Shown here: positions 2 through 27,996 of the stretch, piece after piece
Layout of the letters: each line of letters begins with the position of its first letter
Position numbering within the stretch: position 1 is the stretch's first letter
Assembly (NCBI GenBank): GCA_027001995.1
Contig: JALTLO010000105.1
Span: 1-53,564, forward strand
Length of the DNA stretch: 53,564 nucleotides
Source of the DNA: Planctomycetota bacterium
Lineage (GTDB): Bacteria; Planctomycetota; GCA-002687715; DRQF01
Direction: 5' to 3'
Position numbers and translations under genes: made by a program
Notes under the pieces: generated by a model
The model's input: the letters and a program-made list of their open reading frames with translations, nothing else
The model's database searches: none
What the model was told of the DNA's origin: nothing

Positions 2-143
2 GTGCTGGCATTTTCCTTATTTATTTGCACCGCTATGATTTATGCCTGCATTAAGTTTTTGCAAGAATGGGCATCGCCACTAACGGTTATTAATTATTTT
101 TTACTGGGTAGTGCATCTGGGTTTTCATTGGCGACTGTTTTTT
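2..143 (+). other. Fragment resembling a DmsC/SoeC-type molybdoenzyme membrane anchor; probably foreign sequence at a chimeric junction
   Basis: Translation CTAMIYACIKFLQEWASPLTVINYFLLGSASGF resembles the TAMIYA...W...LT..NY.LLG segment of DmsC/SoeC anchors; first 120 nt are 38% GC (46/120 counted), visibly lower than the rest of the window. Confidence 0.6.
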
Positions 144-2169
144 CATCGTCAACCACGAGTACTGTACCTTCTCCACGCCAAGGCGAATTGTCGTGGGTAG
201 ATTTGACGCCTTGGCGTGCTGGGGAGGCTGCTGTCTTGGCAACAGGGAAGTAGATACGGAATGTAGTGCCGACGCCACAGGTACTCTCGACTTCAATCGC
301 ACCCTTATGTCCTCGGATGATGCCCAAGACCGCGGACATCCCCAACCCCCTACCGGTGAACTTTGTGGTGAAGAATGGGTCGAAAATCTTGTCCATTGTG
401 GGCCGATCCATGCCACATCCTGTATCTTGCACTTCAATGAAGACGTAGGTCTTCTCTGGCATCTTTCTTTCGGCTAAGAGCCAGAGTGTGTTGCTCTTGG
501 TTTCGAAGAATTGTCGATCGCAAAAACTTTGTCCGGTCGACAGGGTTACATCTCCAAGGTCGTTTCCAATGGACTCTGCGGCATTGGTGATGAGATTCAT
601 CACGACTTGGCGGACCTGGGTTGCGTCGCCTTCGAACGTGGGAATCTGAGGGTTTAGATTGAATTTGAGGGTGACGTTTCTTGAGATGGTAATCTCTAAG
701 ATGTTTCCCATCTCCTCCAAGAGTCGGCTGGCGTCAATGGTCTCCAAGACGAATCGACCTCTGCCTGAGTAGGCCAACATTTGTTTGGCAAGGTCTGCGG
801 CGCGCATGGACGCTCGGCCAATTTCCTTGACCATAGGGTAAGAGGGGGCATCGGGTTTTAGCTCCTCCAAGACTAGGTCAGCATTGCCAAGTATCGCCAT
901 GAGCAAATTGTTGAAGTCATGGGCAATCCCCCCAGCCAAGACGCCCAGACTCTCCAGCTTCTGGGCATGTTGAAGCTGCCTCTCTAAAGATTCCTTCTCG
1001 GCTGCAGCATCGATGCGCTTGGTGATGTCGACGACGTAGCCCAAGAAATGAGTGGCATTGCCGTTCTCATCCCAAAGGATCGTGGTAAAGTCATCGATCC
1101 AAATTGTTTGCCCATCTTTGCGGAGAATGCGGTAGGGCTGATGCGAGAAACTGCTGCCTTTCGCCTGAATGCCATGGGCTACTTCGATGCTTACCCTTTC
1201 TTGGTCTCCAGCATGAATGAGAGAGGAATAATGTATTTCACCGGAAAGAAGTTCTGCTGGGGTATATCCGAACACATCCTCCACATTGGGCGATACATAA
1301 GTAACTGGCCAACTCTCAGCATTCCTCCAATTGAAGACGACTACGGGGCCGCCAATGAACATATTGCGTTCATGCTCCAAGGTGAGATTGGCTTGCCGGA
1401 GATCTTCCATCGCCTTTTTTCTTGCGGTGTGGTTGATCATATTGCCTTCCAGAAAGCGGGGCTCGCCATTGTCTCCATTCACCACATAGGCGCTCAAGAG
1501 GACATCGACTGGCATCCCGTCGCCCCGAATGAGGGTCGTTTCGAAAGAAGAGACTGGGGCCTCAAGAGCCATGGAGGTGAGCTTTTGTCTGTCCTCAGGA
1601 TTCTGGTAAGTCTCACGAACGCCGACTTGGTTGAGTGCTTCCAAGGATTCGTAGCCGATGATCTTCAAGAGGGCTGGGTTGGCTAAAATGAGCTTGCCCG
1701 CGAGATTGGTGCGAAAACTACCAATCATAGACAACTCGAACATGCGGTTAATTTCATTTGCACGCATGATCAGCCGGTCCATGTTGTCGTTGTAGCTCCG
1801 CTTTGTCCGACTAAGGGCGTCTTGAAGCCTCGTTAACTCAATGCTCATGTTCTTGCTGTGGTCTAAAGCGATCTGGCGATCACTCATGAGTTCCATTGTA
1901 GCTTGAGCTAATGAGGAAGCCTCCGGCATCAAATGGCCAGGTAATTGAAGATGAACGAGTTGCTCGCTGATAAACTCCTGGCTGAACTTCCTGCCTTGAG
2001 TTAACACGATGCCTTGCACGCGACTGATGAATTCGGGAAGAAGGGTGTATGCCTGTTCCAAATCGTCACAATGAAGGGTGATGACTCCAGTGAGTAGCAT
2101 GCGTTTCGTCGGCCGGGTTGGGTCAAAACCGGGAGGCGTCTTGCGACCAATGCTGAAGAACTGAGTCAT
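94..2169 (-). CDS. PAS-domain hybrid sensor histidine kinase, receiver domain truncated
   Basis: Two PAS/PAC domains, H-box LAGGIAHDFNNLL, N-box QVVMNLITNA, G1/F/G2 boxes DTGCGM...FDPFFTTKFTGRGLG, receiver start VLVVDDEKTV followed by 12 unrelated residues and a stop. Confidence 0.92.
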   Translation of the reverse strand: MTQFFSIGRKTPPGFDPTRPTKRMLLTGVITLHCDDLEQAYTLLPEFISRVQGIVLTQGRKFSQEFISEQLVHLQLPGHLMPEASSLAQATMELMSDRQIALDHSKNMSIELTRLQDALSRTKRSYNDNMDRLIMRANEINRMFELSMIGSFRTNLAGKLILANPALLKIIGYESLEALNQVGVRETYQNPEDRQKLTSMALEAPVSSFETTLIRGDGMPVDVLLSAYVVNGDNGEPRFLEGNMINHTARKKAMEDLRQANLTLEHERNMFIGGPVVVFNWRNAESWPVTYVSPNVEDVFGYTPAELLSGEIHYSSLIHAGDQERVSIEVAHGIQAKGSSFSHQPYRILRKDGQTIWIDDFTTILWDENGNATHFLGYVVDITKRIDAAAEKESLERQLQHAQKLESLGVLAGGIAHDFNNLLMAILGNADLVLEELKPDAPSYPMVKEIGRASMRAADLAKQMLAYSGRGRFVLETIDASRLLEEMGNILEITISRNVTLKFNLNPQIPTFEGDATQVRQVVMNLITNAAESIGNDLGDVTLSTGQSFCDRQFFETKSNTLWLLAERKMPEKTYVFIEVQDTGCGMDRPTMDKIFDPFFTTKFTGRGLGMSAVLGIIRGHKGAIEVESTCGVGTTFRIYFPVAKTAASPARQGVKSTHDNSPWRGEGTVLVVDDEKTVANENPDALPSKK

Positions 2170-3320
2170 GCCGATTCTCCCGAAAGAAGTAGGACAACCG
2201 ACGTCATGTTGTGGAAGAGGGTCTTGCTGGGAGAGACCTTGGAAGGTGCGAATTCTCCGAAAGAAGGAAAGCCGGCCATGGCCTCTAAACTCGGGCAGTG
2301 TTCCAGGATGAGCTTGAATTCTTGCGAAATGGCGTCACCGAGGACCAGCTGCCGCCCAGAGCAACTGGTGACAATAGCGGCAGTTGGTTTGAAAGGAAGA
2401 GAAGAAATGTCTTTGCAGGTCTCCGCCATGTTCTGAAGGAGCGTCTCGGGGGGCGAGAAACAAAGTTGAATCATGTCTCCTTCTCGGGCCTTTGCGAAGA
2501 GTCGCACTGATGTTTCATCGAACTTGTCTTCCGGAAGAAGAACCGAGCGAATTGTGCTATCTCCTGAGTTATCTGTGAGCAGGAGATTAAGAACACCTTT
2601 GTCGATGGATTCGACTGGCTTACCGATTTCTCGCTCAACGAACTCCATAGCATCAAGACCATCGATCTTCTTGAGCAAAGTGCCCTCACAAGCAGTAATG
2701 CGGGCTGGCCGTCCGACGAATAGCATGTCTTTGGCAACGCGAATGTCGAAGTTGATAGCGCCGACTGCGGCGACCATGACGATAGTGTCCTCGAATACCC
2801 GGCGGTTGACATAGACAAAAGACCTCAGCAACTGGTTGTCATCTCCGGCGGATCCTCCGACGACGGGAAAAGTGAGAGCTTCTTCAAGAGCTTCGGCGAT
2901 CAAGCAGGTGTCGGTTCGAAAATCTGTGGTGAAAAAAGCAAATTTTGGCGTTGCGCCACCGCACTGGGCCATGATTCTTTTGACGCAAAGCTGAGTTGAT
3001 TCGTAGGGATGTTCACCAATGTTGTGCTGGTGATGGATGACCCACTGGCATTGTCCTTCACTGTTGATGCCAATGGCCGTCGACCTGGCTTGAGAGCAAA
3101 GTTCACGCTCAAAGCATCCGTCGCTCGTGCAACCGATCAAGATGAGGTCGTCGTTGCCTAACACTTCATAGATCGCCTCAGAAAGTTCGTCTGAGCCGTC
3201 GAAGTGAATCGATGAGAAGAGAAAAACGATCTCAGGGTTGATGGCCGCCAAGGATTCGCCAATCTCAAGTCCGGCTCGATAAGGATCTGGGTTCATCGAA
3301 AAACAGGACTTGGATTTCAT
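2166..3320 (-). CDS. FIST N/C domain sensor protein (NosP-like)
   Basis: LIGCTSDG, VVGGSAGDD, SCSGR, GFPSFGEF, FHNMT motifs typical of FIST domains; ATGA overlap with the kinase. Confidence 0.9.
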   Translation of the reverse strand: MKSKSCFSMNPDPYRAGLEIGESLAAINPEIVFLFSSIHFDGSDELSEAIYEVLGNDDLILIGCTSDGCFERELCSQARSTAIGINSEGQCQWVIHHQHNIGEHPYESTQLCVKRIMAQCGGATPKFAFFTTDFRTDTCLIAEALEEALTFPVVGGSAGDDNQLLRSFVYVNRRVFEDTIVMVAAVGAINFDIRVAKDMLFVGRPARITACEGTLLKKIDGLDAMEFVEREIGKPVESIDKGVLNLLLTDNSGDSTIRSVLLPEDKFDETSVRLFAKAREGDMIQLCFSPPETLLQNMAETCKDISSLPFKPTAAIVTSCSGRQLVLGDAISQEFKLILEHCPSLEAMAGFPSFGEFAPSKVSPSKTLFHNMTSVVLLLSGESA

Positions 3321-3367: not shown

Positions 3368-4453
3368 CTATTTCTTTGACGCCTCTTGCCGCTTGTATAG
3401 CCAGACCCAGCCATGGGAACTTTGGCTGCCGTCTGACATCGTTCGCTTGCCGTAGTCGCCGACAAGGAGGTCTAAGTCTCCGTCGTGGTCGAAATCAACC
3501 ACATGAACCTGTGTTCTGGTTCCCGGGTGTTTCTCGCCGAGTTTCTTGCCATTTGGCTGATTGATGATTGTTTGGGCGGTCGTGAAAGTGGGGGCTTTTA
3601 CAGTCCCGATATTGCGGAACCAAACAACGCCGCCATCGCCACTTCCACTGATGAGATCAAATTTCCCATCGCCATCCCAATCGGCTACCTCGGGAATCCC
3701 GTGGGCACCTTTGATGATCAAGGGAGTTTTTCCGGTCATGACAGAAGTGGACGCATCGTTGAATCGCGGATTCGATTTACTTCCGACGTTCTCACAGAGG
3801 TGCATGCTGCCGTCGTAACCTCCGAGTAGGAGGTCCAGGTCTCCATCTTGGTCCCAATCAACGGCGGTGACGCTTATGCCAATGATTGATCGAAACGGCC
3901 CCTGGTTGTTGTTCCATCGTTTAAGGGAGTAGTCCCAATATTGGCCCAACATGAGGCGTTTGCCAGATTTGTTGAGGAGTGGTTTGGCTGGGGAAAAGCT
4001 TCCGTCTTCTTGACCCTGAAGGAGATAGATCACTCCTTCGAAACATCCAGTGAAGAGATCTTTGATGCCATCGCCGTTGAGATCCGCAAACTGCGGATTG
4101 AGACCAATACATCACCAATTATTGAGTTTGATGACCTTGCCCTTGGCTTTGAGTAAGCCAGCACCTTTGTACTCAGGCTCTTTATTACTTTTGATGTTCA
4201 AGTAGACCTGAAAATGGCCTTTGTAGTTGCCGACGACTAAGTCGTCCAAACCGTCGTGATTGATGTCGTAGATCGCCGGCCCACTGTGGGAGCGGAACGC
4301 TGCTGAGTCGATCAGCTTGCCATCTGCCTTCAGCCTTATGGGCTTCGCCAAAATTACTTTGGCCGTAGTGAGCGACGAAGAGGATTTTTGGGCGTTTAGG
4401 TGGCCGCTCATAGCAGCAAGGAAGAGGAGTCCCACATGCAAAATCAATCTCAT
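3368..4453 (-). CDS. Secreted FG-GAP/VCBS-repeat protein, predicted selenoprotein (361 aa, Sec at codon 114, W-U-C motif)
   Basis: ORFs 4112-4453 and 3368-4033 share a frame; reading through TGA at 4114-4112 gives KLNNW-U-CIGLNPQFADLNGDGIKDLFTGCFEGVIYLL, which adds a complete FG-GAP repeat. Signal peptide; repeats DINHDGLDDL, DWDQDGDLDL, DWDGDGKFDL, DFDHDGDLDL; hairpin after the TGA. Confidence 0.8.
4064..4114 (-). promoter_or_regulatory. Predicted bacterial SECIS element of the FG-GAP gene
   Basis: Upper stem ATCCGCA-GTT-TGCGGAT (4098-4082), loop G 21 nt after the TGA; possible lower stem TGATGT-ATTG pairing with CGAT-G-GCATCA. Confidence 0.7.
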
Positions 4454-26812: not shown

Positions 26813-26841
26813 GGGGAGTAAGCTTCATGGTTAAAGGCGAA

Positions 26842-27996
26842 CTAAAGGTCTTTGCTGCTTTCTAATTTCTTGACCAGCATTTTGACCTTTGAGATTGCCT
26901 GGTTGCCGTTGTGGCCCCGATAGACGATTCTCATGTCTTCATCCAAAACAACCATGGTTGGCCAACCCCTGACCGCCCAATCCTGGGATATGGGGTTTTT
27001 GGCACCTTTTGGTTTGTTTTGAAAAGAGCGCCAGTTTAAGTTCTTCTTCTTGACGATGGCGCGGATCTTGTCGAGGTCACCGTCTGAGTTAACACCAATG
27101 AGAGCGAATGGACGGTTCTTCATTTCCTTCACGAGCGACCGCTCGTGATCGTAGAGAGCACGGCAGGGGCCTCACCAGTCGCCCCAGAAGTCTAAGAGAA
27201 CAATCTTGCCCTTGTAGTCGGAAAGTTTGAAGGAGGTTCCATCCAAGTCGACACCGATAATGTCTGGTGCGACTTTCCCGGTGACAAGATTCTCGCGACC
27301 ATCAATGAGGCCTTTGACCCGGGTCTTGATGTCTGTGTCATCAGTCATGGCAGCGGCGCGAAGGGCTTCTTCTTTGGCAGCCTTATAAGCCATGGTGTCG
27401 GTACCGGCGTTCTCCAAGGACTCGGTTACTCGAGCTAAGATGGCCGTGGCACGAACTTGGCTATGGGGGCTGTTGGTCTCCAAGGCCCGCAGGTAGCCGT
27501 TGGCCACGTCTTTGCCCACGAGGCGTGTTGCGTACATGAAGAGGTTGGCTGATTCTCCCAACTTATCACTTGCGATATGCGTTGTGGTGATTGCTTTTGC
27601 TGCGTTGTTGAAAACGTCTTTGTTTCTTGACCGAAGACCCATCATGAGGAGGAATTTCTGAAAACCAATGGCATCATCGGAAGTGCCGTAAGACTTGGCC
27701 AATTTCCTAGCCTTCTCGATGTGAGGCAAGTAGAAGTCTTCTTTGGGTGCCATGCGCATGGGGGGCATGGGCGGTACTTCTTGGCCGTCTTTCTTGGCCT
27801 TTTCTTGCTCAGCCCGAAGTTTGGCCATTTTCTCCTTTTGTTCCTTGCGCCACTTGGCATAAGCGGCATCCATACCCTCTTCAAGTTCCTTGAGTTGGGA
27901 TTTTGCCTTCGATGGGCCTTCTTGGGCTGGAAGCCACGATGAAGTTGCCATCAAGATGGCAAGTACACCGAGCAGCAACCGCGTCCTGCTATGCAT
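26842..27996 (-). CDS. Exported TlpA/ResA-family thioredoxin-like selenoprotein (384 aa, UxxC)
   Basis: ORFs 27172-27996 and 26842-27132 share a frame; read-through gives LSDYKGKIVLLDFWGDW-U-GPCRALYDHERSLVKEM...VRGWPTMVVLD; signal peptide and helical N-domain. Confidence 0.93.
27129..27174 (-). promoter_or_regulatory. Predicted SECIS element of the TlpA-like gene
   Basis: Perfect 8-bp stem TCACGAGC-GGTC-GCTCGTGA (27148-27129), loop beginning GG 32 nt after the TGA. Confidence 0.85.

Follow-up and report, generated by a model that had tools for sequence, protein, structure and literature searches.

In this study, we identified a candidate selenoprotein gene in a Planctomycetota genome that is recorded as two separate genes. 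It is interrupted by one in-frame TGA, at 4114-4112 on the minus strand of the window (the whole 53,564-nucleotide stretch of DNA analyzed here), which is almost certainly read as selenocysteine (Sec) by SelB-dependent recoding directed by a predicted in-frame hairpin. The two annotated fragments are therefore best taken as one exported protein, predicted to be a five-bladed FG-GAP beta-propeller stabilized by Ca loops, in which recoding would place Sec114 beside Cys115. Our whole explanation, in which this recoded propeller is also redox-cycled with electrons fed by DsbD, has a probability of about 0.52.

The first-pass annotation had described two same-frame open reading frames (ORFs) split by one TGA, and had left out the strand. 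Both lie on the minus strand, at 4112..4453 (113 aa, with the C-terminus ...KLNNW) and 3368..4033 (221 aa). Translation of 4453→3368 with TGA as Sec (U) gives a protein of 361 aa with a sole recoded codon, U114, in the context W113-U114-C115, the TGT of Cys115 standing directly 3′ of the TGA. As had been noted, the 26 codons from the TGA to the GTG of the second ORF are open, and they hold FG-GAP loop 2. Standard gene callers were expected to split such a gene, and indeed the 113-aa and 221-aa halves are recorded in databases as two proteins. The host genome contains one copy of the family gene, with the following parts:

3368..4453, minus strand: whole gene, 361 aa with TGA as Sec, stop TAG (ORFs and recoded translation)
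4391..4453, minus strand: signal-peptide-like N-terminus, about residues 1-21 (hydrophobic stretch; putative cleavage site)
4112..4114, minus strand: in-frame TGA, predicted Sec114 (recoded translation, homolog column, independent contigs)
4109..4111, minus strand: TGT, Cys115, vicinal to Sec114 (translation; homolog codons)
4082..4098, minus strand: predicted bacterial SECIS upper stem-loop over codons N-P-Q-F-A-D (folding and family covariation)
3395..4351, minus strand: predicted five-bladed FG-GAP beta-propeller, about residues 35-353 (Pfam, loops, model, structural matches)

Neither a promoter-like site nor a minus-strand terminator-like site was found near the gene. Its neighbors in the window are a FIST protein, a PAS histidine kinase, and an S51 peptidase; the FIST-domain protein and the PAS/histidine kinase (window 94-3320, minus strand) lie immediately downstream on the same strand, 47 nt past the stop, a linkage absent among the neighbors scanned in other genomes.

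An assembly error is ruled out as the origin of the TGA, because the same codon is read in the probable source contig and in two further contigs that cover the site, one from each of two other studies (assembled contigs from four of the seven listed runs were used, that of the fourth run ending short of the codon). The earlier reading, which depended on such support for the TGA, is thus upheld by independent contigs.

Homologs place Cys where this gene has its TGA. Among the 120 protein matches listed, 57 are full-length and carry Cys-Cys (58 with the query, which this count leaves out), 60 are C-terminal fragments whose alignments begin at query 118-151, just past the Sec column, and the three others are one W-C, one S-S, and one distant repeat protein. 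The column is Cys in 57 of the 60 spanning matches, as expected of a bacterial selenoprotein, and the expectation that it would hold Cys or TGA was confirmed. The pair is not universal, with SS (P0004), DS (P0151), WS (P0172), HC (P0183), and WC (P0003) variants. Cys-Cys homologs share 35-42% identity with the query, e.g., WP_145187361.1 of Gimesia chilikensis and WP_146409059.1 of Allorhodopirellula heiligendammensis. They are members of the same family, with the same five repeats and Cys for Sec; most have a helical insertion ahead of the last strand and some a tail formed by the N-terminal domain of DsbD (DsbD-N), and their recorded names, "FG-GAP/VCBS repeat-containing protein", give no function.

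At the nucleotide level, 17 of the 80 GTDB loci listed have TGA-TGY and one has TGC-TGC, and the best 14 of the 80 metagenome loci listed are all TGA-TGC; the remaining loci in both sets either do not cover the site or encode distant FG-GAP proteins that lack the motif. The codon after the TGA in 27 distinct TGA loci is TGC in 23 and TGT in four. In a phylum sample of 401 genomes, 93 have a match at E 1e-25: 85 with an internal TGA, two full-length without a stop, and six with the C-terminal part only. Codon position was checked in the top 30 phylum loci, where 29 have the TGA at residue 114 and one is Cys-Cys, and in 20 further regions, out of 85 TGA genomes. The 301 genomes of the phylum of L007 (Verrucomicrobiales) gave three matches only, all TGA-TGC. 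The named relatives were sampled from many kinds of environments. Several genomes carry multiple or tandem paralogs (L204 in G397, L205 in G346, and L211-L213 in G119), G119 having at least four TGA-bearing family copies. Very long open frames around some homologs were considered as fusions and rejected, as they correspond to GC-rich upstream sequence.

The same data bear on whether the locus is a pseudogene or two genuine genes, as the separate records of both halves and the C-terminal halves that make up 60 of the 120 listed matches could suggest. However, in the loci examined the stop at the column is always TGA and never TAA or TAG, among homologs with 30-65% identity. In addition, two separate products would break blade 2 apart, and the larger of them would have no signal peptide, whereas the model of the joined protein is confident (pLDDT 90.9). 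We consider this the least probable of all the readings, by a hair.

The distribution of the two forms hints at an old Sec residue. In a FastTree phylogeny of 126 rows, Sec forms occupy the deep branches, and five changes between Sec and Cys are needed, three of them forced by strong branches; this suggests Sec ancestry of the family on a tree that is midpoint-rooted only.

The host genome (5.2 Mb, 92% complete, with Planctomycetota as best named relatives) encodes the Sec machinery that the first-pass annotation considered necessary: selA, selB, selD, and tRNA-Sec (68 bits) are all over curated cut-offs, and selD itself has one in-frame TGA. The selA, Sec-containing selD, and tRNA-Sec genes are clustered at G000:C148:21750-24409, and selB is on C17. 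Across the phylum, selA is present in 85 of 85 TGA-form genomes vs 288 of 401 in the whole sample, a comparison in which the relatedness of the genomes overstates independence and for which no p-value is claimed. All four further TGA-form genomes also have selA, and selA is absent from one small Cys-form assembly and from the Cys-form genome G344 (single contig, 99% complete). Counting against the recoding story, the Cys-form genome G375 has selA and yet uses Cys-Cys.

The first-pass annotation had described the hairpin of this gene as a 7-bp stem lying 14-30 nt after the TGA with a G-initial loop, and these features were recovered (window 4098-4082, GUU loop, -10.2 kcal/mol); the lower stem, which it held could include the TGA, leaves that codon out in the 48-nt minimum free energy (MFE) structure and is absent from the family consensus. 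Taken alone, this hairpin is not above chance: 126 of 200 dinucleotide shuffles fold as well (z +0.36), synonymous recoding gives a z of -0.5 (p 0.26), and a loose hairpin rule is satisfied by 494 TGA sites in the host genome.

The signal is found at the family level, in a set of 70 distinct TGA-anchored 48-mers. RNAalifold recovers stem 19-22/28-31, and in stem 18-22/28-32, 97.1% of cells are paired over the 70 sequences, vs 23-48% in slid controls. Covariation had been proposed as a check, and compensatory changes were indeed observed: pair 21-29 is A-U in 52 sequences, G-C in 13, G-U in three, and broken in two, and pair 20-30 is C-G in 66, U-A in three, and U-G in one. There are 16 two-sided changes in the stem vs 3.1 in shuffles (0 of 500 reach it), a count to which only two of the five stem pairs contribute covariation and which relatedness inflates. 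The switch from A-U to G-C at pair 21-29 couples a synonymous Pro position to a change from Val to Ala, and the Pro codon at the stem is CCA in 51 of 65 cases vs 82 of 944 further along these genes. The synonymous-recoding z has a mean of -1.98 over 73 TGA sites, 42 of them with p <=0.05, vs -0.18 for three Cys-form loci. This 70-sequence SECIS alignment offers a case in which an RNA pair constrains protein sequence.

The family hairpins match the consensus bSECIS model as given in section 5 of PMC13188914, with a loop about 20 nt after the UGA, a G within the first two loop positions (68 of 70), and an MFE <= -7.5 (69 of 70); the hairpin of the present gene fits this consensus rule as well, but does not rise above its shuffles. 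L184 and L188 have an AAGGY loop (nt 23-27 from the UGA) with the G at the third position, outside the rule. Other parts of the system also resemble the bacterial bSECIS selenoprotein genes of PMC13188914, namely, the in-frame UGA, the Cys homologs, and the host selABCD.

Alternatively, the TGA could be read as Trp or Cys, through leaky readthrough or code reassignment. One full-length record, P0003, has W at the column, which is possibly the reading of a gene caller. However, the column is Cys in nearly all spanning matches, and this reading would explain neither the link with selA nor the SECIS-type hairpin. Moreover, long frames in the host end most often in TGA (1010 of 2372) and the anticodon of the host tRNA-Trp is CCA, so that there is no general reassignment of TGA. 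This reading is very improbable, and SelB-dependent recoding as Sec is by far the preferred one.

The claim of an exported FG-GAP propeller with an adjacent Sec-Cys pair was supported and could be refined to five blades. The Pfam FG-GAP/VCBS match (PF13517/PF01839) scores 86.6 bits against a cut-off of 26.9, which identifies a repeat protein of this type, and five loops of the DxDxDG type start at residues 63, 124, 199, 258, and 320; from their motif, these loops probably bind Ca. A hydrophobic N-terminus (maximum 10-residue Kyte-Doolittle mean 2.69), shared by 56 of 57 full-length family proteins including the query, predicts export. AlphaFold2, run on the family alignment with Cys in place of Sec, returned a model with pLDDT 90.9 and pTM 0.88. 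Sequence searches of the PDB gave single-repeat matches only. To our knowledge, known FG-GAP propellers are seven-bladed; the sequence holds five repeats rather than the seven of the integrin/CRTAC1 type. FG-GAP propellers (integrin alpha, CRTAC1, ITFG2, and Psathyrella lectin) have the Ca-loop motif in common with the present protein, and Foldseek matched them weakly, at a TM-score of about 0.4. In a wide structural search, the top 50 matches are all five-bladed carbohydrate enzymes (GH43, GH62, GH32, and kin; Z 14-18), with 6-14% identity and an rmsd of 3.4-4.3 in all but one row. A five-bladed propeller is a consistent reading of the five repeats and these matches to the model.

GH43, GH62, and GH32 glycosidases have conserved catalytic Asp/Glu residues in a funnel. 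Among 126 sequences of the present family, selected by motif, the acidic columns conserved at >=70% are confined to the Ca loops and positions next to them, so that, judged from sequence alone, blade number is shared with these glycosidases and their carboxylates are not. What is conserved instead are aromatic residues at 56 (99%), 113 (86%), and 138 (98%), which, from the repeat register and the FG-GAP topology, would lie with U114-C115 in loops, the Ca loops being on the other face.

The main rival to a redox function starts from this fold. The selenoprotein could be a lectin, adhesin, or binding protein in which a permanent, structural Se-S bond forms a platform for a sugar or other ring ligand, reduction at most switching binding off. 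The carbohydrate enzymes at the top of the structural search, the FG-GAP lectins and integrins among the weak Foldseek matches, and the conserved aromatics around the U-C pair would all suit such a platform, and PMC12102755 describes vicinal disulfides as a platform that binds undecorated ring faces. Nevertheless, at 6-14% identity, a shared fold shows no function, and a fixed platform explains poorly both the retention of Sec across the deepest branches and the fusion to DsbD-N. We judge this alternative unlikely, although it is the strongest of those considered.

From a functional perspective, we favor a redox-cycled vicinal Se-S center, because DsbD-N is fused in homologs and passes electrons to periplasmic thiol proteins. 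Sec114 and Cys115 would be joined as a vicinal selenenylsulfide within a pocket lined by aromatic residues (H/Y56, W/Y113, F/Y138, H251) opposite the Ca loops. The Se-S pair would cycle between oxidized and reduced states, reducing a small pocket-bound substrate outside the cytoplasm, and may be re-reduced by the DsbD N-terminal domain (fused in some homologs, separate in the host), perhaps via TlpA-type redoxins. The redox idea of the first-pass annotation is thereby favored in the form of a cycle, to which we give close to even odds. Pfam identifies DsbD-N as a C-terminal tail in P0096 (E 4e-9) and P0046 (E 2.5e-6), and all 13 aligned fusions retain its two Cys. A tail profile built from these 13 Cys-form fusions (of 83 sequences) matched two of 69 complete Sec-form loci, the Cys-form L055, and the host genome's own DsbD. 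The fusions, a minority (two of 69 among Sec-form loci), occur on several FastTree branches. The host encodes a separate DsbD and several UxxC redoxin candidates. Among 67 neighbors of 20 loci, there was no conserved neighborhood apart from one syntenic pair of relatives, and a redoxin was nearby at only one of the 20. A search for longer homologs gave, for the most part, generic FG-GAP proteins of many repeats for which the Pfam column lists no redox domain; this is weak evidence.

The first-pass annotation had also put forward a soft-metal binder, for which we found little support. In this alternative, U-C and nearby His residues would bind a metal or metalloid such as Cu, Hg, or As. In the table of PMC13188914, families whose names refer to metal or organometal chemistry carry CU motifs, e.g., MbdU, SaoL, and HgcA; the DNA probably comes from a hydrothermal vent metagenome; and most Cys forms have H56 and H251 (50 and 51 of 54). 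However, these His residues are not conserved in Sec forms (23 of 72 at position 56 and 32 of 72 at position 251), a single heavy-metal ATPase was found among the 67 neighbors, and the named relatives come from many sample kinds. Metal binding is improbable, and redox cycling with re-reduction by DsbD-N is the reading we retain.

The recoding mechanism is canonical; the scaffold, the export, and the U-C motif are unlike those of the families listed in PMC13188914. No FG-GAP, VCBS, or propeller family appears among the 119 prokaryotic selenoprotein families of its 2026 table or anywhere in the text of the review. Vicinal Cys/Sec selenoproteins are listed there, with CU in SaoL, SaoC, HgcA, MbdU, KCU-star, and Csac_0668 and GxUC in the CopZ-type (2Fe-2S)-binding form 1. 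These share adjacent Sec and Cys residues, but have other folds and mostly the C-U order, whereas the present motif is U-C and internal to an exported propeller. Neither the query nor any of 46 aligned members scores above the curated cut-off of an NCBIfam selenoprotein model. The family was not mentioned in deep-Sep (text and four supplements), SelCysML (text), or BSepDB (text and supplement), where the supplement result carries little weight as it possibly does not cover the family list. A search of the literature on Sec with FG-GAP, VCBS, propeller, or Planctomycete, covering mainly text outside supplements and subscription papers, returned nothing on the present family.

The family is undescribed as far as the 119-family table goes, but FG-GAP Sec candidates of another architecture had been reported. 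Table S9 of the 2016 supplement (PMC4807772) holds Planctomycetes FG-GAP/ASPIC-UnbV candidates with an in-frame UGA, annotated as two genes. Those proteins have an ASPIC/UnbV domain, and their closest match has Gly at the aligned position, whereas the present protein aligns to Cys-Cys and has no ASPIC/UnbV match (PF07593), either in itself or at its locus. Since the host also encodes a separate ASPIC/UnbV candidate, the two are probably different families, set apart here by descriptions rather than published sequences. That candidate (G000:C49:+, TGA at about 27140, L235) joins frames of 626 and 369 aa by one TGA in a D-T-U-S context. It combines seven FG-GAP loops with an ASPIC/UnbV domain, shows a strong hairpin, and is probably of the kind in Table S9.

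The bacterial selenoproteome would gain a large family whose fold, location, and U-C motif are unlike those listed. Gene callers split the family gene in about one-fifth of the sampled phylum genomes, and at least 85 of the 288 selA-positive genomes sampled carry it, which places it among the commoner selenoproteins of the phylum. More tentatively, and with rather less than even odds, we propose that this unlisted protein is an exported enzyme, ancestrally Sec, whose vicinal Sec-Cys pair is a catalytic redox center fed by DsbD. If true, this would be redox catalysis by selenium on a scaffold other than thioredoxin, and an RNA stem would dictate a choice between Val and Ala. As natural Sec and Cys versions coexist, the latter in cultured Gimesia and Allorhodopirellula, the preference for Sec in a strained vicinal bond is directly testable.

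Finally, the host genome looks selenoprotein-rich. The window itself holds another Sec candidate (26840-27996, minus strand, TGA 27172-27174), an exported TlpA/redoxin-like protein with W-U-G-P-C that is split into 274 and 109 aa; it matches AhpC-TSA and Thioredoxin_8 and is of a known kind (UxxC). Further thioredoxin-type UxxC or VPGU candidates are found on contigs C27, C43, C58, C68, C76, C88, C138, and C141 of the same genome (G000).
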